From a virus (taxonomy: Duplodnaviria; Caudoviricetes), in IMG/VR virus record IMGVR_UViG_3300008116_000002: a stretch of 64,000 nucleotides of DNA. One strand, 5' to 3'. A program made the position numbers and the translations under genes. The first letter of the stretch is position 1. The number at the start of each line of letters is the position of its first letter. Below the pieces are notes generated by a model. It was not told the DNA's origin and made no database searches. It was given only the letters and a program-made list of their open reading frames with translations. This document shows positions 46,385-56,087 of this stretch, one piece after another.

Positions 46385-46461
46385 GCCCACTTAGCTCAGT
46401 CGGTTAGAGCACAATCTTGATAAGGTTGGGGTCCCTGGTTCGATTCCAGGAGTGGGTACCA
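46385..46461 (+). tRNA. tRNA-Ile(GAT)
   Basis: Cloverleaf; CAATC-TT GAT AA-GGTTG; TTCGA; CCA. Confidence 0.95.
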
Positions 46462-46462
46462 A

Positions 46463-46538
46463 GTCCCATTCGTCTAGTGGCCTAGGACATCGCCCTTTCA
46501 CGGCGGTAACAGGAGTTCGAGTCTCCTATGGGACGCCA
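46463..46538 (+). tRNA. tRNA-Glu(TTC)
   Basis: TCGCC-CT TTC AC-GGCGG; CCA. Confidence 0.95.
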
Positions 46539-46583
46539 TTTGATATGCCGATTGAGAAATAGTACAGTCAACATATCAAATGG
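46536..46583 (+). repeat. Inverted-repeat spacer 1
   Basis: CCATTTGATATG/CATATCAAATGG, 12 bp, includes the Glu CCA and the Cys 5' GG. Confidence 0.8.
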
Positions 46584-46659
46584 TAAGGTGGCTGAGTGGT
46601 CCAAAGCAGCAGTCTGCAAAACTGTAAAGCCGCCGGTTCAAATCCGGCCCTTACCTCCA
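46582..46659 (+). tRNA. tRNA-Cys(GCA)
   Basis: GCAGT-CT GCA AA-ACTGT; U73; CCA. Confidence 0.93.
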
Positions 46660-46664
46660 GATAA

Positions 46665-46739
46665 GGTCTCAAAGTGTTCATGGACGCACATATGCCTGTC
46701 ACGCATAAAGAAGGGGATCGTTACCCCTTGAGACCGCCA
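46665..46739 (+). tRNA. tRNA-Asp(GTC), atypical T-loop
   Basis: TATGC-CT GTC AC-GCATA; T arm AGGGG-ATCGTTA-CCCCT; CCA. Confidence 0.85.
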
Positions 46740-46741
46740 GA

Positions 46742-46946
46742 ACCCCCGGGATCCCTTACCCGGTAATATTACTAGGGGGTATTGACAGCCACAATGTCAG
46801 GGTGTCGAGATCGGAGCTACCTCAAAACTCCTGGGAAGGAGTGACGAAAAGTCTCGAAGGACAGCGCTGCAACTGACCTTAATAAAAGCGGACGGACAGT
46901 GAAACAACTCAGGAAAGGGCGAGTGCTGGGTGCTCGTAGCTTTCCA
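46742..46946 (+). ncRNA. Unidentified structured RNA A
   Basis: Nested stems ACCCCC/GGGGGT, TGACA/TGTCA, GTCAG/CTGAC, TCGAGA/TCTCGA, ACTCCT-GGGA-AGGAGT, GGAAAG/CTTTCC; ends in CCA. Confidence 0.55.
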
Positions 46947-46948
46947 TT

Positions 46949-47030
46949 GCCCATGTGGTGAAATGGTAGACACGCTTGCCTTAGGAGCAAGTACGAGAGT
47001 GTGGCGGTTCGAGTCCGTCCATGGGCACCA
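46949..47030 (+). tRNA. tRNA-Leu(TAG)
   Basis: CTTGC-CT TAG GA-GCAAG; long variable arm; CCA. Confidence 0.93.
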
Positions 47031-47124
47031 TATTGAAGTGTTGTTTAGGGTGGCAGGTAAAAGTTTAACAAGACTTTGAGGGCTGGAATTCCCGATCTGT
47101 GAACAGCAGAACACTTCAATATGG
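47028..47124 (+). repeat. Inverted-repeat spacer 2
   Basis: CCATATTGAAGTGTT/AACACTTCAATATGG, 15 bp, includes the Leu CCA and the Ala 5' GG. Confidence 0.85.
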
Positions 47125-47197
47125 GGAATTGGCGTAATTGGGAACGCAGTAGCTTTGCAAGCTTCAGTCAGGAGTTCGAATCTCCTATTCTCCACCA
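47123..47197 (+). tRNA. tRNA-Ala(TGC)
   Basis: GTAGC-TT TGC AA-GCTTC; G3.U70; CCA. Confidence 0.93.
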
Positions 47198-47204
47198 AAT
47201 ATTT

Positions 47205-47282
47205 CGGGGAGTAGCTTAGTCCGGTTAAAGCGCCTGCTTTGGGAGCAGGAGATCGAGAGTTCGAATCCCTCTTCCCCGACCA
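47205..47282 (+). tRNA. tRNA-Pro(TGG)
   Basis: CCTGC-TT TGG GA-GCAGG; CCA. Confidence 0.95.
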
Positions 47283-47289
47283 GTTTTAT

Positions 47290-47364
47290 TCCAGAGTAGC
47301 TCAGCGGCAGAGCCGCGGACTGTTAATCCGTTGGTCGTTGGTTCGATCCCAACCTCTGGAGCCA
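47290..47364 (+). tRNA. tRNA-Asn(GTT)
   Basis: GCGGA-CT GTT AA-TCCGT; CCA. Confidence 0.95.
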
Positions 47365-47370
47365 GTTTTA

Positions 47371-47455
47371 GGATGACGAGCAGCATTGGTGACTGCAGCA
47401 GACTGTAAATCTGTCGCCTCAGGCATACGGGGTTCGATTCCCTGGTCATCCACCA
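47371..47455 (+). tRNA. tRNA-Tyr(GTA)
   Basis: GCAGA-CT GTA AA-TCTGT; long variable arm; CCA. Confidence 0.94.
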
Positions 47456-47458
47456 TAC

Positions 47459-47533
47459 GGGAGATTAGCTCAGTGGTAGAGCAGCGCCCTTACAAGGCGA
47501 AGGTCAATGGTTCGACCCCGTTATCTCCTACCA
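47459..47533 (+). tRNA. tRNA-Val(TAC)
   Basis: CGCC-CT TAC AA-GGCG; CCA. Confidence 0.94.
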
Positions 47534-47541
47534 GATTTTAT

Positions 47542-47618
47542 CTGGCGTTAGCTCAGTTGGATAGAGCAACAGCCTTCTAAGCTGTGGGTCGGGGGTTCGA
47601 ATCCCTCACGCCAGGCCA
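47542..47618 (+). tRNA. tRNA-Arg(TCT)
   Basis: ACAGC-CT TCT AA-GCTGT; CCA. Confidence 0.95.
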
Positions 47619-47624
47619 TACAAT

Positions 47625-47698
47625 TGGGGATTAGTGAAATGGTATCACACCGGATTTTGATTCCGAGGTCGTAAGTTCGATTCTTACATCCCCTGCCA
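47625..47698 (+). tRNA. tRNA-Gln(TTG)
   Basis: CGGA-TT TTG AT-TCCG; CCA. Confidence 0.93.
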
Positions 47699-47730
47699 AA
47701 TCGTTATTAAAGTGTTAATAAAACAAATGC

Positions 47731-47759
47731 TTGACAAGAAATTGATTCGGTGTTATAAT
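47731..47759 (+). promoter_or_regulatory. Strong early promoter
   Basis: (TGC)TTGACA-17 nt-TATAAT. Confidence 0.85.
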
Positions 47760-47788
47760 TATGATATAATGTAAATAAGGAGATACAA

Positions 47789-47929
47789 ATGCAACGAAAA
47801 CGTATCGCCAAGCCCCGTAACCCGCTGGTGGCTTTGGCATTGTTTAAGAAAGCGGGTAAGCATCAAAAAACAAACAAAGCATTACGTAGGGAATATAGAG
47901 CGGGCATAGCTCAGTTGGTAGAGCAGTAG
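47789..47929 (+). CDS. Small basic protein, 46 aa, whose stop lies inside tRNA-Lys (not in ORF track)
   Basis: MQRKRIAKPRNPLVALALFKKAGKHQKTNKALRREYR-AGIAQLVEQ; SD AAGGAG; own promoter. Confidence 0.7.
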   Translation: MQRKRIAKPRNPLVALALFKKAGKHQKTNKALRREYRAGIAQLVEQ

Positions 47930-47975
47930 ACTTTTAATCTATGTGTCGTGGGTTCGAATCCCTCTGCCCGTACCA
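47900..47975 (+). tRNA. tRNA-Lys(TTT)
   Basis: GTAGA-CT TTT AA-TCTAT; CCA. Confidence 0.95.
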
Positions 47976-48059
47976 TATTAAAACACATTTCGAGCGGTGT
48001 TCCGATATCGGCCAGCCCGCCCCAAAGTAGATGTCTAGGGTAGTGTGTTTTAATATGGT
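47972..48059 (+). repeat. Inverted-repeat spacer 3
   Basis: ACCATATTAAAACACA/TGTGTTTTAATATGGT, 16 bp, includes the Lys ACCA. Confidence 0.85.
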
Positions 48060-48410
48060 GAAGAAGCAAGGTTGGGATTTCGTCAGATAATGACGGTGCG
48101 CTGAAAAAACCCAGTAATGCGAAGCCGAAAGGCATCCTTGCGGTAAGCAGAAAGTTGGCGTGGCGACCAATCATCATAAAGTTCCGGTTACTACTTTCCT
48201 GAAAGTAGCGTATGGTAAACGAGAAAGTCCCGGTGGCTATGGCACCGTTAGCGAGACATAGACTCTGTATTTCGATGCGGTGTCTCCGGTGTCTCAGACA
48301 ACATAGCAACGTGGACACTACGCAGCAAACCGCTATTAGTGTTTGGACAGGGCAACAACTCCAGCATAGGGGCGATCTGTGGAAAGACGTGGCCTAAGCA
48401 AGAATACGAT
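48060..48410 (+). ncRNA. Unidentified structured RNA region B
   Basis: GCAAGG/CCTTGC, CGTCA/TGACG, GCC-GAAA-GGC, CTACTTT/AAAGTAG, CGGTG/CACCG, GAGACA/TGTCTC with a TTCG loop; no credible ORF. Confidence 0.55.
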
Positions 48411-48486
48411 GGTGTCTATAGTGTAGTGGTCTGCACGCCAGATTGTGGGCCTGGCAGTATGAGTTCAATCCTCATTAGACACCCCA
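48411..48486 (+). tRNA. tRNA-His(GTG)
   Basis: Encoded G-1; CCAG.-TT GTG GG-.CTGG; C73; CCA. Confidence 0.88.
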
Positions 48487-48508
48487 AAGTTAATCGCGTG
48501 TGAGGCGT

Positions 48509-48522
48509 GGGGCTTCGGCCCC
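48509..48522 (+). terminator. UUCG hairpin
   Basis: GGGGC-TTCG-GCCCC. Confidence 0.5.
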
Positions 48523-48540
48523 TAACCTATTTGTACTTGT

Positions 48541-48630
48541 GGAAGTGTGGCAGAGTCCGGTTTATTGCAACAGTCTTGAAAACTGTCGAACAGAAATGTT
48601 CCGTGAGTTCGAATCTCACCGCTTCCGCCA
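48541..48630 (+). tRNA. tRNA-Ser(TGA)
   Basis: ACAGT-CT TGA AA-ACTGT; long variable arm; G73 CCA. Confidence 0.95.
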
Positions 48631-48643
48631 CTAAGGAGTAATT

Positions 48644-48793
48644 ATGCCAATGTATGAAACAACAGTAAGAACGCCACAGGGTGAAGTAAAAGATAGAGTG
48701 TTTGCAAAAGATTTACAAGAAGCAAGAATGCTTTTTGAACAAAGACACGGACCTAGAAACGTACCATATATACCTAAAGTAATTCCAAGTTAG
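48644..48793 (+). CDS. Small protein, 49 aa (not in ORF track)
   Basis: MPMYETTVRTPQGEVKDRVFAKDLQEARMLFEQRHGPRNVPYIPKVIPS; SD AAGGAG. Confidence 0.65.
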   Translation: MPMYETTVRTPQGEVKDRVFAKDLQEARMLFEQRHGPRNVPYIPKVIPS

Positions 48794-48805
48794 AAGGAGA
48801 AACAA

Positions 48806-49369
48806 ATGCCTGCAATTTTTTTAGTTAGTGATACTCATTTCGGCCATGCAGGCGTTTGTAAATTTCTACGTGACGATGGCACTAAATTACGTCCATGGGA
48901 TAACCCCGAGGACATGGATGAAGAAATGGTCAAGCGGTGGAATGAAACTGTTAGACCAAAAGATAAAGTTTATCATTTAGGAGATGTAGTTATTAATCGA
49001 AAGGCTTTAAAAACGCTTAGTAGATTAAACGGTGAAAAGGTCTTAATCAAAGGTAATCACGACATCTTTAAACTTGAAGAATACACTGAGTATTTTAAAG
49101 ATGTTCGAGGTTATCATGTACTGAATGGAATGATTCTAAGCCACATTCCTATTCATGAAGAAAGCCTTGCGAGGTTCGGGACTAATATTCATGGACATCT
49201 ACATTACAATCGTGTAAAGAAAAATGAAGTCATTGATCCTCGTTATCACTGCGTATGTGTAGAGCATACCGACTACCGCCCAATTCTTTTTGAGGATGTC
49301 ATTAAAAAGATTCAAGAAGAGGGTGGGCATATTGGATTTAAAAATGGCAATGGACCTATTATAGATTGA
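48806..49369 (+). CDS. Calcineurin-like metallophosphoesterase
   Basis: SDTHFGH, HLGD, KGNHD, SH, HGHLH. Confidence 0.9.
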   Translation: MPAIFLVSDTHFGHAGVCKFLRDDGTKLRPWDNPEDMDEEMVKRWNETVRPKDKVYHLGDVVINRKALKTLSRLNGEKVLIKGNHDIFKLEEYTEYFKDVRGYHVLNGMILSHIPIHEESLARFGTNIHGHLHYNRVKKNEVIDPRYHCVCVEHTDYRPILFEDVIKKIQEEGGHIGFKNGNGPIID

Positions 49370-49379
49370 GGAGTTTGAA

Positions 49380-49586
49380 TTGAATACTAAGTTGAAAGCA
49401 ATTAAACAGACAGCTATGATGGTAGTTATCATATGTCTTATTCCTATGATTCTAACGTTTTTGTTTACTTCCGAGATAGCATCTTATATTTTTATCATAG
49501 GTATGGTAGCATTTTTTATATACATTATGTATTCTGTAAATCTAGCATTTATAGAATTTGAGGAAAAGTTTAAAAATAAGGAGTAA
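49380..49586 (+). CDS. Small two-TM membrane protein
   Basis: TTG start after GAGGAG; two hydrophobic helices. Confidence 0.55.
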   Translation: MNTKLKAIKQTAMMVVIICLIPMILTFLFTSEIASYIFIIGMVAFFIYIMYSVNLAFIEFEEKFKNKE

Positions 49587-49592
49587 GTATTT

Positions 49593-49687
49593 GGAGCGTT
49601 GGCCGAGTTGGTCGAAGGCACTTTCCTGCTAAGAAAGCATCTGGGCAAAAACCTGGATCATTGGTTCGAATCCAATACGCTCCGCCA
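49593..49687 (+). tRNA. tRNA-Ser(GCT)
   Basis: CTTTC-CT GCT AA-GAAAG; long variable arm; CCA. Confidence 0.94.
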
Positions 49688-49692
49688 GCAAT

Positions 49693-49728
49693 GCCCCCGT
49701 AGTTTAATGGTAAAACAGCGGATTGTAT
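49693..49728 (+). pseudogene. 5' half of a tRNA gene, truncated in the anticodon loop
   Basis: GCCCCCG-TA-GTTT AATGGTA AAAC-A-GCGGA-TT..., with no matching 3' half. Confidence 0.7.
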
Positions 49729-49733
49729 AAATA
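49726..49733 (+). promoter_or_regulatory. T4-type late promoter
   Basis: Exact TATAAATA at the truncation point, upstream of the endonuclease SD. Confidence 0.7.
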
Positions 49734-49752
49734 ATAGTAAAGGAGAAATCTT

Positions 49753-50403
49753 ATGCTATTATGCAAATTTTGCCAAAAAGAATGTAAGAATGAAAACTCA
49801 TTGAGGAATCACAAGAGACTTTGTAAAGAAAATCCAAATAAACAACCACACCCTAAAGGTAATAGCGGAAAAGTTGGTTGGAATAAAGGGCTAACTGCAG
49901 AAACTGATGATAGAGTTTTTGCTAATAGAGAAGCTTTACGAAAACAAAGAAAAGAAAATGGTTCTAATTGGATAGGAAGAAAGCATTCAGATGAAACTAA
50001 AGAATTATTATCAATAAGAGCGTCTGAACGTTTATGTAAAAATTCAAAATACTCTATAAATTTTGAATATAAACCTGGAATCATATTAGAATCTTCATAT
50101 GAAGTTGAAACTGCTAAAATTTTAGATGAATTGAATATAGAATGGATTAAAGTTAGGACTGGTTATAAATGGGATGACAATGGAAAGATAAGAAGATATG
50201 TCCCTGATTTTTTCCTTCCGAAATATAACATATTTCTAGATCCAAAAAATGATTATTTGATTAAAAAAGACAAAATAAAAATAGATTCTGCAATGAAACT
50301 TAATTCAATAACTATTATTGTGTTATCAAAAGATGATTTGAATGTAGAATCTATAAAAAGTAAATTGCCTACCGTAGCTCAAGGAGAGCAGGGTGCCTTA
50401 TAA
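49753..50403 (+). mobile_element. Free-standing homing-endonuclease-like gene (Zn finger, NUMOD3-like, PD-(D/E)XK)
   Basis: CKFC...HKRLC; GRKHSDETKELL; SSYE...YVPDFFLP...LDPK. Confidence 0.7.
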
Positions 50404-50457
50404 GCACTTCGACCAGATAAGTCCCAGGTTGTGGTTCGATTCCGCACGGTAGGACCA
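50368..50457 (+). tRNA. tRNA-Ile(TAT) with long variable region
   Basis: CCTACCG/CGGTAGG acceptor; GGTGC-CT TAT AA-GCACT; TGTGG-TTCGATT-CCGCA; CCA. Confidence 0.75.
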
Positions 50458-50459
50458 GA

Positions 50460-50534
50460 GGTAATGTAGCATAACGGTAGTGCACCGCCTTCATACGGCG
50501 CAAGGTATAGGTTCAAATCCTATCATTACCACCA
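50460..50534 (+). tRNA. tRNA with CAT anticodon (elongator Met or Ile2)
   Basis: GGTAATG/CATTACC; CGCC-TT CAT AC-GGCG; CCA. Confidence 0.85.
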
Positions 50535-50544
50535 TAGTTTCAGA

Positions 50545-50620
50545 CGCGGATTAGGGAAGAGGTCATCCCGCTAGGCTCATAACCTGGAGATCGCTGGTTC
50601 GAATCCGGCATCCGCAACCA
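50545..50620 (+). tRNA. tRNA-fMet(CAT)
   Basis: C1xA72 mismatch; CTAGG-CT CAT AA-CCTGG; CCA. Confidence 0.85.
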
Positions 50621-50628
50621 GTTTATAA

Positions 50629-51216
50629 ATGAATATGAAAATTTATGATAATGTTTTACCGAATCAAACTTTTTCTAATTTAAAAAATAGAATTTTTGAT
50701 TCCAATTTCCCTTGGTTTTTTAGTAGAACTTCTGTAGAAAATCCTATAGAGGATAATATTTTAACCTATAGTTTTTCTCATGCGGTTATGAATCACGGTG
50801 TGCCAAATTCTATAATATTTGACACAATTAATAGTTGCATCTTAACCATGTTAGATAATTGTAATATAAAACTAAATATGTTATTAAGTATTAGACTTGG
50901 ATTACTACAACCAGTGTCTAGAGAAAATCATAGTAATGATCCGCACGTGGATAGTCAAGAAAAACACAAGGTGGGTTTATTCTATTTAAATACTACAGAT
51001 GGCGCAACAACAGTATATAATGAAAAGTACGATCCTTCTACAAAGATGGATCCAACAGAATATTATAGATCGGTTCTAAATAGAAATCTTTCTATTCAGT
51101 CCAAAGTAGAATGCACTGAAAATAGATTAGTTATTTTTGATGGTATGTATTATCATTCAAGTACTACTCCTACCGATGTACCTAGGAGAGTAGCATTAAA
51201 TTTTAATTTTGTATGA
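50629..51216 (+). CDS. 2OG-Fe(II) oxygenase (phage type)
   Basis: PHVD...YHSS...RRVALNFNF. Confidence 0.8.
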   Translation: MNMKIYDNVLPNQTFSNLKNRIFDSNFPWFFSRTSVENPIEDNILTYSFSHAVMNHGVPNSIIFDTINSCILTMLDNCNIKLNMLLSIRLGLLQPVSRENHSNDPHVDSQEKHKVGLFYLNTTDGATTVYNEKYDPSTKMDPTEYYRSVLNRNLSIQSKVECTENRLVIFDGMYYHSSTTPTDVPRRVALNFNFV

Positions 51217-51218
51217 TA

Positions 51219-51296
51219 CCGCCATTAGCTCAATTGGAATAGAGCGCAACGCTACGGACGTTGAGGTTAGGGGTTCGAGTCCTTTATGGCGGGCCA
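51219..51296 (+). tRNA. tRNA-Arg(ACG)
   Basis: CAACG-CT ACG GA-CGTTG; CCA. Confidence 0.93.
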
Positions 51297-51874
51297 GTTT
51301 CTGAAGGTGGAATTGCTATTAATTCTTCAATACCAAAGTAATAGTCTTTAAGAATTTCTGACATTAGATCGCATATTTTTATATTTTTTTCAAAACCAGC
51401 AAGATCATTTTTTCTACCTTCTATTTGCTTTTCAACAAGTTCAAGTATTAAATTTTTTCTTTTGGTTTTAGAATTTACTCGACGTAGTACTTGTTTTAAA
51501 TGTTCGAGATGAACATTACATACATTAATATTGTGGTGCATATCTGTTCGTATTTTTATAACCTCATCCTGCATTAGGACAATTAGATCATCTGTTTCTG
51601 GGTTTAAGTTAGGAACAAGTCTTGACACCATCTGAGAAATATGTTCTAATGCAGCATTGCGAAGAGTTAGATCTTCTGAGGACTCACCTAACAGATCAAA
51701 TTCTTTTCTTCGAATAGGATCGATTAGAATTTCATATGCAAGTTTAATACGAACGAATATTTGTTCATCCCCACCCTTGTCGGGATGATGCACTTGAGCC
51801 AATGAACGAAATTTTATTTTAATTTCTTCATCTGTTGCATCAATCGGAATATCTAATTCGATGTAAGGATTCAT
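51284..51874 (-). CDS. J-domain (DnaJ-like) protein
   Basis: N-terminal J domain with HHPDKGG; helical C-terminus. Confidence 0.88.
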   Translation of the reverse strand: MNPYIELDIPIDATDEEIKIKFRSLAQVHHPDKGGDEQIFVRIKLAYEILIDPIRRKEFDLLGESSEDLTLRNAALEHISQMVSRLVPNLNPETDDLIVLMQDEVIKIRTDMHHNINVCNVHLEHLKQVLRRVNSKTKRKNLILELVEKQIEGRKNDLAGFEKNIKICDLMSEILKDYYFGIEELIAIPPSETGPP

Positions 51875-51912
51875 GGCTATAAATTATTTTATAGTATTTA
51901 TTAGGAGATAGT

Positions 51913-52095
51913 ATGTCAGGAAAAGGATCTAAACCAAGACCATTTGCAATAACCAGGGAACACTTTGTAGAAAACTGGGATATGATTTTTAACAAAGAAA
52001 ACAATACTGGTACAGATAAAAATGAGTATCAAGACATTCTTTCAACCGAGGAAGCAGTATTATCAGCTTTCGAAAACTTAAAGGAAGTAAAATGA
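51913..52095 (+). CDS. Conserved small phage protein
   Basis: MSGKGSKPRP...NWDMIF; SD AGGAG. Confidence 0.7.
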   Translation: MSGKGSKPRPFAITREHFVENWDMIFNKENNTGTDKNEYQDILSTEEAVLSAFENLKEVK

Positions 52096-52991
52096 ATCTC
52101 GCTGGTGTTAACGGCAGCATAGCGGTCTCCAAAACCGAAGGACGGGGTTCGAATCCCTGGCGGGGTGCCAAATATATTGCTCTACTACTTGCATTCGTAA
52201 CTTGCTTTGCGTCTGCGCATGAGCCTAAAAAGAAAAAGAAAAAGAAAGTAGTTACTGCGGAAACTGCAAGCTATGTGGTGTACAACAATACAAAAGATGC
52301 TTACGAGTATATTAGAGAAAAAGAAAAGGTTCGCCCAATAGCAAGTGTCACTAAGCTAATGACGGCAATGGTTGCTCTAAATTATGATTTGAATTTAAAT
52401 CGAGAACTTAAAATTCAATCTAAGGTAGGTGGGACTTTACCGAGAAACAAAAGTTATACTAGGCAAGAATTGTTTGGAGCAATGCTTGTTCGAAGTGATA
52501 ACTCCGCGGCAGAAACTTTGGCTAGTGATTTTCCTGGAGGTAGAGAAGCCTTTATTCGTGAGATGAATAAATTTGCAAACTATATCGGTATGCGAGATAC
52601 AAACTTCGATGATCCAACAGGACTGAGCGCTGCAAATACTTCGACAGCCACAGATGTTGCGGCGATGGTTGCACATGCAGCACAATATACTTTGATTCGA
52701 GAAACTAGTACAAAGAAGCAGGTTGAAATTGATACTCAATATAAGAGAAAAATTAGAAAACTTGTTTTAAACAATACAAACAAACCTGTTCTTTTTAACT
52801 TTGATGATATTGTCGTTAGTAAAACAGGCTTTACCTCCAGAGCAGGATATTGTTTGGCTTTGGCAGTTGAACGAAACAATCAAAGATATTCTGTAGTTAT
52901 TTTGGGTTCTAGAAATAAGCAAGCTAGAATTCATAAAGCCGAGGACATTTTGTATAATCATATTGCATACAAAGATATTGACACTAATTAA
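52092..52991 (+). CDS. D-Ala-D-Ala peptidase S11 (PBP7/PbpG-like)
   Basis: SxxK (ASVTK), SxN (SDN) and KTG motifs; hydrophobic signal segment. Confidence 0.9.
   Translation: MNLAGVNGSIAVSKTEGRGSNPWRGAKYIALLLAFVTCFASAHEPKKKKKKKVVTAETASYVVYNNTKDAYEYIREKEKVRPIASVTKLMTAMVALNYDLNLNRELKIQSKVGGTLPRNKSYTRQELFGAMLVRSDNSAAETLASDFPGGREAFIREMNKFANYIGMRDTNFDDPTGLSAANTSTATDVAAMVAHAAQYTLIRETSTKKQVEIDTQYKRKIRKLVLNNTNKPVLFNFDDIVVSKTGFTSRAGYCLALAVERNNQRYSVVILGSRNKQARIHKAEDILYNHIAYKDIDTN
52096..52170 (+). tRNA. tRNA-Trp(CCA), nested in the S11 peptidase frame
   Basis: ATCTCGC/GCGGGGT acceptor; CGGT-CT CCA AA-ACCG; GGTTCGAATCC; G73 CCA. Confidence 0.85.
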
Positions 52992-53029
52992 GAAAGAATA
53001 TATAATTAGACTAGTTCAAAGGGGAAGTT

Positions 53030-53503
53030 ATGAGAAAAAAGTTGGACATTCAAGAAATCAAAAGTTTCATTGAATCGCAAAGCCCGGAAACTAAAATTTA
53101 TCTTGGAGCGGACTCTGAACGATATAAACATAATGGTAAATGGTATGCGGATTATACTATTGCAGTTGTAGTTCATATTGATGGTCGCCATGGGTGTAAA
53201 ATTTTTGGTGAGGTTCAAACTGAACTAGATTATGATGCAAAAAACAGCAAACCATCTATGCGTTTGATGAATGAGGTCTACAAGGTTGCAGAATTGTATC
53301 AAAAGATTGTGGATGTCGTCGAGGACAGACACGTAGAAATACATTTGGATATTAACCCAGATGAAAAACATAACAGTAGTATTGTGATTCAGCAAGCAGT
53401 TGGTTATATCAAAGGTATGTGTAATGTGGTACCTATGGTTAAACCAAAAGCATTTGCCGCAAGTTATGCAGCAGATAGACTTAAAGAATTGCTTGCAGCA
53501 TGA
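53030..53503 (+). CDS. RNase H-like protein (DUF458/YkuK-like)
   Basis: YLGADS, RLMNEV, IHLDIN, AAD. Confidence 0.75.
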   Translation: MRKKLDIQEIKSFIESQSPETKIYLGADSERYKHNGKWYADYTIAVVVHIDGRHGCKIFGEVQTELDYDAKNSKPSMRLMNEVYKVAELYQKIVDVVEDRHVEIHLDINPDEKHNSSIVIQQAVGYIKGMCNVVPMVKPKAFAASYAADRLKELLAA

Positions 53504-53508
53504 AATTC

Positions 53509-53582
53509 GCCCTCTTAGTTAAATGGTATAACAGTTGATTTGTAATCATCTATTGGCAGTTCGATTCTGTCAGAGGGCACCA
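53509..53582 (+). tRNA. tRNA-Thr(TGT)
   Basis: TGA-TT TGT AA-TCA; CCA. Confidence 0.92.
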
Positions 53583-53598
53583 TTTTAGAAAGGTCGGT

Positions 53599-53799
53599 AT
53601 GTTAGGATTGGAACAGGCAGGTGTATTTTTAGGAGCAACAATTCTTATTGGCTTTGGTATAGCATTTATTGGAATGGTTGTGATTTTTCTTAATAACATG
53701 ATTCATAGATTTTGGAAGCCGTTAAACTGGTTCGGAAAGTATTTTAACTTTAACGAGCCAACCAACCCTGAGCCTCCAAAAACTAAACCTTCATTATAA
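53599..53799 (+). CDS. Small membrane protein
   Basis: One long hydrophobic helix. Confidence 0.6.
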   Translation: MLGLEQAGVFLGATILIGFGIAFIGMVVIFLNNMIHRFWKPLNWFGKYFNFNEPTNPEPPKTKPSL

Positions 53800-53808
53800 G
53801 GAGTTTGT

Positions 53809-53961
53809 ATGCAAAAGGAATTACTAAAAGAAAATGGACCTAAGTGTGGTTGTGGTCGTAGCCCAAGTGGGTATTGCATTGGTTGGCATGGACTTTCTGA
53901 ATCGGAATATAAAGAGCGTTTGGAACAATACAAGCAAGATCTAGGCGAGAACGACAAATAA
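53809..53961 (+). CDS. CDGSH/NEET-like Fe-S or Zn protein, 50 aa (not in ORF track)
   Basis: CGCGRSPSGYCIGWH (3 Cys, 1 His); SD AAGGAG. Confidence 0.6.
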   Translation: MQKELLKENGPKCGCGRSPSGYCIGWHGLSESEYKERLEQYKQDLGENDK

Positions 53962-53971
53962 ATAGTTACAT

Positions 53972-54045
53972 GCGGGATTAGTTTAATGGTAAAACGAAAG
54001 CCTTCCAAGCTCTAATCATCGGTTCGATTCCGATATCCCGCTCCA
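53972..54045 (+). tRNA. tRNA-Gly(TCC)
   Basis: AGC-CT TCC AA-GCT; U73; CCA. Confidence 0.93.
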
Positions 54046-54049
54046 TAAT

Positions 54050-54337
54050 ATGCGTATTCAAAAAGATGAGACTTACGAGCAATGGTCAGAAAAGGTTCGT
54101 CTTTTTGAATATGGAGTTGCACTGCAAAGAATTGCTAAAGGCGACGATATAGATATTGTTTTGGAGTCTATGTCGAAAAAAATTAATCAAAAACTTTTGC
54201 ATCCTTTGATCGAAAGCATCAAACAATCATGTCAAATAGATTATGATCCTTTGATCGCAAGAAAAAATTACGAAGAAAATTACTTAGGAAAAGCAAATCC
54301 TGTAGCAGATCATATGAATGATGTAGACTTCTATTAA
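54050..54337 (+). CDS. Stand-alone glutamyl-tRNA reductase dimerisation-domain-like protein
   Basis: ALQRIAKGDDIDIVLESMSKKINQKLLHP resembles the HemA C-terminal helices. Confidence 0.55.
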   Translation: MRIQKDETYEQWSEKVRLFEYGVALQRIAKGDDIDIVLESMSKKINQKLLHPLIESIKQSCQIDYDPLIARKNYEENYLGKANPVADHMNDVDFY

Positions 54338-54343
54338 TCACAA

Positions 54344-54392
54344 AGACCCCCTTAAACTTTGTGTCTATATAAATAGATATAAAGGAGGGTCT
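54344..54392 (+). promoter_or_regulatory. SD-sequestering hairpin with internal late promoter
   Basis: AGACCCCCTT(54344-53) pairs with AAGGAGGGTCT(54382-92); TATAAATA at 54368-75. Confidence 0.7.
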
Positions 54393-54821
54393 ATGATAGA
54401 TATTAATGAATTCATTAAAACTAGTAAACAAGAACGGCAATCTCATTTATTATTATCTGAAAAATGTATTGAACGTGGGGGAAATTCGACCAATCACAAG
54501 GGGGTATTAGCTCAGTATTTGAATACCTCTATCCCTTCGGGTAGAATACTTTTATGCCATGCGTGCAACAATGAAAAATGTAGTAATCCAAAACATTTAT
54601 ATTGGGGTACAGACAAAGAAAATATTACTGAAGATAATAAAAAATGGAAATCTGTTTGGGAAAGAACCATTGAAAAATATGGATATGAGGAAGCCTGCAG
54701 GATAAATTCTCGTAAGCAAATTGGAAACAAAAATGGTTCGGGCAATAAAGGTAAATCTAAAACTGAAGAACATAAAAAAAAGATAGCAAAGTCTATTAAA
54801 AGCAATTATAATAAGATGTGA
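54393..54821 (+). mobile_element. HNH homing endonuclease with NUMOD3-like tail
   Basis: LCHACNNEKCSNPKHLYWGT.KEN; KGKSKTEEHKKKI. Confidence 0.8.
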
Positions 54822-54831
54822 TGTATTTAAT

Positions 54832-54917
54832 GCGAGTGTGGTGGAACGGTATACACTTTGGACTTAAAATCCAACGCCCGTAAGGGATTGAGGGTTCAAA
54901 TCCCTCCACTCGTACCA
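54832..54917 (+). tRNA. tRNA-Leu(TAA)
   Basis: TTGGA-CT TAA AA-TCCAA; long variable arm; CCA. Confidence 0.94.
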
Positions 54918-54948
54918 GTGTTTTATATTTTTATTTTAAGGAGATTGA

Positions 54949-55485
54949 ATGAAAACAGTAGGTGATAAACTTGAATCATTTTCAGTTACCGGTGTTAATC
55001 CCGGTAAGGATGATTTCTTTACTATTACAGAAAAATCTTTTGAAGGTAAGTGGAAAGTAATTGTTTACTATCCAAAAGATTTTACATTCGTATGCCCAAC
55101 AGAAATCGTAGCATATGATAAATTGTTCCAAGACTTTGCAGATCGTGATGCAGTATTGTTGACAGGTTCAACAGATAATGAATTCTGCAAACTAGCATGG
55201 CAACGTAGTCATGAAGATCTTTCAAAGATCAAGCATATTCAATTTGCTGACACCGCACGTGAATGGGGCGTATCTTTGATCGAGCAATTGGGTGTGTTCT
55301 ACGCACCGGCAGGCGCAGCACTTCGTGCAACCTTTATCGTTGATCCAGAGAACACCATTCAGCACGTTACCGTAAACAACTTGAACGTTGGTCGTAGCCC
55401 AGAAGAAACACTTCGTATTCTTGATGCGCTACAAACTGGTGAACTATGTGCATGCAATCGCACAATCGGCGGAGAGACTCTATAA
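54949..55485 (+). CDS. ahpC: Peroxiredoxin AhpC
   Basis: YPKDFTFVCPTE; RATFIVDP; GRS..E.LR.LDALQ; LCAC. Confidence 0.95.
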   Translation: MKTVGDKLESFSVTGVNPGKDDFFTITEKSFEGKWKVIVYYPKDFTFVCPTEIVAYDKLFQDFADRDAVLLTGSTDNEFCKLAWQRSHEDLSKIKHIQFADTAREWGVSLIEQLGVFYAPAGAALRATFIVDPENTIQHVTVNNLNVGRSPEETLRILDALQTGELCACNRTIGGETL

Positions 55486-56003
55486 TGACTGCTTGGGTAG
55501 ATACACTAAAAGAAGTAAGTATTCCTGAGTATGCCAAGGATACTAAACTTAATTTAGATGCGGTTATCAAACGTAGTTCACTACCCGCAGAAGAGGCGGA
55601 GGCAATTGCTCTTGCAGCTGCCTTTGCTACAGGTAATAGTAAACTATGGACATGGCTTCACGATCAACTTACAGATCGTAAAGAGGCAGATGCCGCTCTT
55701 ACCGCAGGCGCAATCATGGCACAAAATAATGTATGGTATCCATATGTTGAAATGGCAGATGATGCGAACCTAAAAGGTCTTCCTGCTCAACTTCGTATGA
55801 ATGCAATTGCAAGCCATGGTGGTACAACAAAGGCAAGGTTTGAAGCATATAGTCTTGCAGCAAGTATTGTGGGCAAGTGTCATTTTTGTGTAAAAGCGCA
55901 TTACGAAACTTTGAAGCAAGAAGGTTATACTGTAGAACAATTACGAGACATTGGTCGTATTGCTGCAGTAATGAAAAGTGTTGCAAGTGTTTTAGCTAAT
56001 TAA
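55485..56003 (+). CDS. ahpD: Alkyl hydroperoxide reductase AhpD
   Basis: MAQNNVWY and ASIVGKCHFCVKAH; TAATG coupling to ahpC. Confidence 0.93.
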   Translation: MTAWVDTLKEVSIPEYAKDTKLNLDAVIKRSSLPAEEAEAIALAAAFATGNSKLWTWLHDQLTDRKEADAALTAGAIMAQNNVWYPYVEMADDANLKGLPAQLRMNAIASHGGTTKARFEAYSLAASIVGKCHFCVKAHYETLKQEGYTVEQLRDIGRIAAVMKSVASVLAN

Positions 56004-56010
56004 AGCACAA

Positions 56011-56087
56011 GGGCCGGAAGCTTAATTGGTATAAGCGTCCGACTCATAATCGGGGGACAGTGAGTTCGAGTCTCACCCGGCCCACCA
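56011..56087 (+). tRNA. tRNA with CAT anticodon, Ile2-like
   Basis: TCCGA-CT CAT AA-TCGGG; GGGCC acceptor; A73 CCA. Confidence 0.85.

Follow-up and report, generated by a model that had tools for sequence, protein, structure and literature searches.

The 64,000-nt window analyzed here derives from a T4-like phage, as judged by DNA polymerase and UvsX matches (a gp41-like helicase was also named by eye), and contains an ORF at positions 47789 to 47929 whose only stop codon lies within a tRNA-Lys gene. As indicated by a large family of relatives and by purifying selection, this ORF is a real gene, and its sequence is that of a small, very basic protein belonging to an unnamed family. By analogy with ArfA and BrfA, we favor, at a probability only slightly above one-half (about 0.55), a role for the product as a tmRNA-repressed ribosome-rescue factor, the message for which would here be made non-stop by RNase P.

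The ORF and its overlap with tRNA-Lys

The window contains 25 tRNA genes predicted by ARAGORN (46385 to 56087), and the ORF lies among them together with a set of features that are all on the plus strand. A putative sigma70-type promoter (TTGACA-17-TATAAT with an extended -10 TG, 47731 to 47759) matches the consensus at 12 of 12 positions, with only one other such site between 45000 and 51000, and is overlapped by a second putative site with a 10/12 match (47742 to 47770). The Shine-Dalgarno sequence TAAGGAG (47776 to 47782) is 6 nt 5' of the ATG at 47789, and sequences matching the strong promoter and ribosome binding site described in the initial annotation are thus both present. We found no terminator-like sites between the upstream tRNAs and the ORF, so the ORF can also be carried on a long transcript of the array.

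The distance from the ATG to the tRNA is 111 nt (47900 - 47789), and this stop-free stretch of exactly 37 codons (47789 to 47899) is predicted to become a non-stop mRNA once RNase P has cut. The whole ORF has 46 codons (46 aa), and the final nine codons and the TAG (47927 to 47929, nucleotides 28 to 30 of tRNA-Lys) are tRNA sequence; the coordinates agree with the earlier description of a sole stop inside the tRNA. The 37-residue peptide is as basic as first reported, with seven lysines, six arginines (13 K/R), and a single acidic residue. The tRNA-Lys(UUU) gene (47900 to 47975; ARAGORN and Rfam) is the best Rfam tRNA match in the window (71.8 bits), with a G1-U72 first pair and an acceptor stem and encoded CCA that fold correctly; its +1 position is the presumed RNase P site.

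Relatives in phages, plasmids, and chromosomes

A profile search (E<=1e-3) recovered relatives in 663 clusters at the 50% identity level, usually unannotated, which are distributed among the Betaproteobacteria, some Gammaproteobacteria, their plasmid tRNA arrays, and T4-like phages. The initial annotation proposed a phage rescue factor, and in this respect it was too narrow, because the protein is also encoded in bacterial chromosomes and plasmids; in a Burkholderiales-level sample of 301 genomes the family profile matches 47 (∼16%), and in a class-wide sample of 151 it matches 8. The conserved core is about 40 residues long (consensus PRNPxVAxALFRKAGxHxKxxKAxRR; RN-x2-V-x7-AG-x-H-x-K-x-NKA-x-R in the phage protein), and the tails, of 17 to 150 residues, are unconserved and vary with reading frame among relatives. 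Across 53 viral cores pS is 0.71 and pN is 0.18, and 11 of 26 positions are invariant. The AlphaFold model (mean pLDDT, 82) has helices at residues 12 to 18 and 29 to 36 joined by an extended linker. Scans of the phage protein and the family against Pfam, PHROGs, and NCBIfam gave nothing significant, and PDB searches by profile and by Foldseek with the 37-residue model gave no match by sequence or fold. A Shine-Dalgarno sequence precedes the ATG in most relatives, and the promoter is rejected as a conserved part of the arrangement, since many relatives lie directly 3' of an upstream tRNA and keep only the Shine-Dalgarno sequence. The literature searched, most of it open-access, yielded no account of the family, of DUF7230 (see below), or of phage ORFs made non-stop by RNase P.

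Every relative with an intact tRNA-Lys downstream (about 50 loci) lacks a stop codon 5' of the tRNA. The spacing between the conserved His codon and the tRNA +1 takes ten values (39, 43, 47, 48, 49, 50, 51, 52, 53, and 55 nt) that cover all three reading frames, and the linked tRNA-Lys sequences differ widely (30 distinct). With relatives cut in all three frames, the exactly in-frame cut highlighted in the initial annotation is not a meaningful feature. The tRNA concerned is tRNA-Lys(UUU) at 47 of the 49 linked loci; the relatives L062, L074, and L172 enter tRNA-Arg or tRNA-Met instead. Among 56 distinct viral loci, 45 have a frame that is still open where an intact tRNA begins (tRNA-Lys in 43, tRNA-Arg in 2), two are on contigs that break off within tRNA-Lys, about six have a tRNA-Lys that is decayed or missing, and one has a stop 14 nt 5' of tRNA-Met; in the cultured phages ACP17 and V45v66 the gene has ordinary stops. 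The layout recurs in cultured phage BUCT-ZZ01 (ON615601.1, CDS UTS52149.1), in GC-rich tRNA arrays, among them that of Burkholderia aenigmatica (L100) and the loosely spaced ones on plasmids from Burkholderia sp. M701 and Pandoraea (L156, L157), and at loci L171 and L173. By a rough count, 64 of the 148 top clusters have tails resembling translated tRNA, and all three of those checked on DNA enter a tRNA. Five close phage relatives (L005, L008, L036, L089, and L091) retain the ORF next to a tRNA-Lys that has decayed to a 5' remnant supplying an ordinary stop.

The family overlaps tRNAs more often than expected by chance, as its stop is inside the tRNA in 39 of 42 instances, versus 11 of 41 other Shine-Dalgarno-led genes abutting tRNAs at the same loci, the latter giving a background overlap of 27% in these phages. 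The linkers are also open: in 39 distinct linkers there are no stops in 287 in-frame codons (17.7 expected), versus 33 in 536 off-frame triplets, with the caveat that part of the linker is probably necessary coding sequence. Because the loci are related, we counted each spacing class once, which gives a P value of 0.003 for all linkers being open, or about 0.06 when the tRNA-Arg class is left out; the independence of the loci is only bounded in this way, as 40 residues are too few for a tree.

The most telling evidence comes from bacteria. Forty-two chromosomal loci are without a tRNA, and we scored these for terminators and hairpins with a shuffle-controlled test. An intrinsic terminator is read through before the stop in 14 (1.3 expected from shuffles), and an arfA-like long inverted repeat precedes the stop in 4 (0.03 expected), the E. 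coli arfA hairpin itself scoring 18.8 in the same inverted-repeat test. Eighteen of the 42 loci thus have a layout giving a non-stop mRNA, 20 have neither element and ordinary stops, and only 4 have a terminator 3' of the stop. That three unrelated RNA elements, a tRNA, a terminator, and a long hairpin, occupy much the same position in one family and in each case take away the stop is a convergence hard to explain except by selection for a non-stop message. The non-stop layout is nonetheless dispensable, as the ordinary stops in the 20 chromosomal relatives, in ACP17 and V45v66, and in several phage loci with decayed tRNA-Lys illustrate. The ArfA-like logic first proposed for this ORF is therefore upheld in part: the stop-less layout is conserved, by three different means, and all tRNA-Lys-linked relatives have it, whereas ordinary stops in homologs, which were regarded at the outset as counting against the proposal, are present in nearly half of the chromosomal loci and in two cultured phages. 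A further point in its favor is that rtcB is a same-strand neighbor, no more than 1.7 kb away, in 11 of the 42 chromosomal loci, and just upstream in ten of these, and that the L173 tRNA array has both an RF1-like gene and rtcB; RtcB has been tied to ribosome rescue via PrfH (PMC6514570). Other recurring chromosomal neighbors, named by eye, are dapF just upstream, a dapA-like gene downstream, and hslU upstream (L102, L103, L137, L114, L116, L117, L123, L128, and L135).

Rescue-factor likeness and alternative readings

The family resembles ArfA (YhdL, PF03889), the RF2-dependent rescue factor of E. coli, in being a small basic protein with a conserved N-terminal core and an unconserved tail (PMC8012679), encoded by an ORF that crosses an mRNA-truncating element; in arfA this device acts by stem-loop cleavage or termination (PMC8012679), and four chromosomal relatives have an inverted repeat scoring like that of arfA. 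Both traits, the small basic protein and the non-stop layout, are present at the phage locus, and the layout is present in all relatives linked to tRNA-Lys. It differs in that RNase III or termination truncates arfA whereas an RNase P cut at a tRNA is predicted here, in length (about 55 residues for ArfA versus 37), and in sequence. There is no match to the ArfA profile in Pfam or NCBIfam and no KGKGSY-x-RK-x-KH motif in the family; neither of two hhalign comparisons with ArfA is significant (score 9.9, reached by 4 of 30 shuffles), and the family HMM gives E. coli ArfA a score of -1.7. The KKAGKH sequence that had been likened to ArfA is coincidental: the invariant His is centrally placed and follows a variable residue (mostly V, S, or A), and the family lacks the conserved KH near the C terminus that typifies ArfA and BrfA. 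We detected no homology and rejected both ArfA membership and the reading of KKAGKH as an ArfA KH motif. ArfA itself is present in only 3 of the 301 Burkholderiales-level genomes, none shared with the family, numbers too few for a test of mutual exclusion.

BrfA (YqkK) of Bacillus subtilis offers a second parallel, with an intrinsic terminator within the ORF before the stop (PMC6881298), as in 14 of the 42 chromosomal relatives, and an extended segment leading into a short basic helix at the C terminus, a likeness that compares our model with the published description of BrfA (PMC6881298). BrfA is different in having about 62 residues, an N-terminal helix, and a KH motif, and in coming from a different phylum; the family profile does not match it among PDB chains. 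ArfT of Francisella tularensis, to which the family scans gave no link, is a charged, helical rescue factor of about 40 residues, so that such a size can work (PMC6299226, as reviewed in PMC8012679). The nearest named family is DUF7230 (PF23876), which came up in two Atlas searches (0.83 and 0.88, both under 0.9). An hhalign comparison gives a probability of 46% and an E value of 2e-4, above all 30 shuffles, against a DUF7230 alignment of only five sequences, and both families start with RNP-x-[AV]; their C-terminal halves are unlike, and neither the phage protein, nor 71 alignment members, nor 10 bacterial members pass the DUF7230 Pfam cut-off. The family is a candidate distant relative of DUF7230, through a link of moderate strength. 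One DUF7230 member (L141:1477-1638) has a 24-bp inverted repeat within the ORF, ahead of the stop, a hairpin suggesting that non-stop mRNA may be the source of DUF7230 proteins too.

Two further ORFs bear on these families. At L139:76-340, a 38-residue ORF of the true ArfA family (above the Pfam cut-off) has its own TTGACA-17-TATAAT promoter and Shine-Dalgarno sequence and an ordinary stop 6 nt 5' of tRNA-His, in what is otherwise the architecture of the phage ORF described here. In T5-like Proteus phage PM135 (L151:1225-1419), an ORF between RNase H and metallopeptidase genes has a motif intermediate between the family and DUF7230; it scores weakly on the family HMM (10.2), above 300 shuffles, and has relatives in 31 phage records.

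RNase P cleaves at the +1 position of tRNAs, and tmRNA tags the products of non-stop mRNAs. From the observed layout, the ORF would be co-transcribed with tRNA-Lys, and RNase P cleavage at 47900 would leave a 37-codon message without a stop. As in arfA and brfA, ribosomes would then stall at the message end and tmRNA would tag the peptide for destruction, such that untagged peptide accumulates only when tmRNA is overloaded; repression of this kind is, by that analogy, the likely arrangement. The peptide might then bind stalled ribosomes through its basic helices and aid release, probably by recruiting a release factor, which is the weakest step and one toward which we lean only slightly. Control is probably leaky, because the uncut precursor also yields a terminated 46-residue form, and in the commonest spacing class the stop is as early as tRNA nucleotides 8 to 10, so that control must hinge on the speed of RNase P cutting. 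In the predicted complex of the peptide with domains 2 to 4 of a Burkholderiales RF2, the score is 0.09 against a mark of 0.32, which counts neither for nor against an interaction. The length of the cut product counts against an ArfA-like reading, as 37 residues is below the 40 to which ArfA has been shortened with loss of activity (PMC8012679), though ArfT is about 40 residues long.

All of the non-stop evidence would fit equally well if the product were under the same tmRNA-repressed control and induced by translation stress, but recruited no release factor; it could, for example, assist RNA repair by RtcB, act as an RNA-binding chaperone for cleaved tRNA or rRNA, or protect or inhibit ribosomes. 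The rtcB link is as suggestive of RNA repair as it is of rescue, and the family has no ArfA or BrfA sequence features. Nonetheless, the characterized small basic proteins that we found to be made from non-stop mRNAs, ArfA and BrfA, are rescue factors (PMC8012679, PMC6881298), and tmRNA feedback is most sensible for a product that substitutes for tmRNA, such that we consider a product of this type rather unlikely. Genome compaction provides another account, in which an ordinary small protein of unrelated function has its stop in the tRNA only through crowding and the pair is inherited as one module. The 27% background overlap among control genes, a second ORF ending inside a tRNA in this genome (49753 to 50403), and the ordinary stops of many relatives are all in keeping with this, but the overlap persists at all ten spacings and in all three frames, with tRNA-Lys sequences that diverge, and in loose plasmid arrays, and compaction cannot account for terminators and hairpins within the chromosomal ORFs; we regard it as improbable.

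The strong preference for tRNA-Lys raises the question as to whether the ORF is instead a cis-acting leader that senses lysine. With plentiful Lys-tRNA, ribosomes would enter the tRNA and block its folding, and upon depletion (e.g., by PrrC-type nucleases) stalling at Lys codons would free the tRNA for processing. Such a leader likewise predicts that no stop precedes the tRNA, and would explain why tRNA-Lys(UUU), a PrrC target (PMC10264068), is the partner in 47 of 49 linked loci and why Lys accounts for 7 of the 37 codons; a few chromosomal relatives are also near dapA- or dapF-like genes, as named by eye. However, invariant residues other than Lys (N, V, A, G, H, and R) are common to relatives without a tRNA, K and R replace each other freely at several positions, and the K:R ratio is similar in linked (K 5.4/R 5.5) and unlinked low-GC (about 5.0/4.6) members. 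In the chromosomal copies, moreover, the terminator comes before the stop, an order unlike that of classical attenuators. We therefore give leader action as the sole function little credence, although it could operate in addition to a protein function.

Returning to the rescue-factor reading, the protein probably works like ArfA and BrfA without belonging to either family, and by a new RNase P route. Because tRNA-Lys(UUU) is cut by PrrC (PMC10264068), its pairing with the ORF might, speculatively, make a counter-defense cassette that supplies the phage with fresh tRNA-Lys and a rescue factor when host defenses damage tRNA or ribosomes. More broadly, and with odds that we put a little short of even, this could be a fourth, independently evolved family of release-factor-recruiting rescue proteins, common in Betaproteobacteria beside rtcB and on phages and plasmids, the mobile copies of which are under tmRNA feedback through RNase P maturation of a fused tRNA-Lys, so that a single transcript would counter tRNA-cutting defenses with a replacement tRNA and a rescue factor together. 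Such a feedback route through tRNA maturation was not found in the literature searched.

Reviews anticipate further small rescue factors beyond the reach of sequence searches (PMC8012679), and this family is a concrete candidate in the Burkholderiales-level genomes sampled, where ArfA is nearly absent. If the reading is correct, it would represent a phage-borne rescue factor, tRNA maturation would be added as a third route to a programmed non-stop mRNA, and ribosome rescue would be joined to RtcB RNA repair and to phage tRNA-Lys replacement. A search rule for further hidden factors also follows, namely, small basic ORFs with a stop beyond a processing site.

Other features of the tRNA arrays

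A perfect 16-bp inverted repeat (47972 to 48059, plus strand; z -4.8), the left arm of which overlaps the ACCA end of tRNA-Lys, may have a bearing on tRNA 3' processing; of the 43 viral tRNA-Lys genes linked to the family, about 9 are followed by such a repeat. It is one of three inter-tRNA spacers with long terminal stems that start at the CCA end of the upstream tRNA (46536 to 46583, 47028 to 47124, and 47972 to 48059, following tRNA-Glu, -Leu, and -Lys, respectively; z -4 to -5 for Leu and Lys), which are possibly 3'-processing signals or small mobile elements. Two other inter-tRNA stretches (48060 to 48410 and 46740 to 46948) are GC-richer and ORF-poor, share a 17-nt repeat (at 46894 and 48345), have no match in an Rfam search, and are candidate ncRNAs. 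The second ORF/tRNA overlap in this phage genome involves a zinc-finger/NUMOD3 endonuclease-like ORF (49753 to 50403) with its stop 36 nt into a 90-nt tRNA(TAT) gene (50368 to 50457). Elsewhere, the 33-tRNA array of L173 contains an RF1-like release-factor gene without the N-terminal domain (L173:5072-5741), which is split at a CTT-TGA-C site resembling the prfB +1 frameshift, and rtcB lies 3' of that array.
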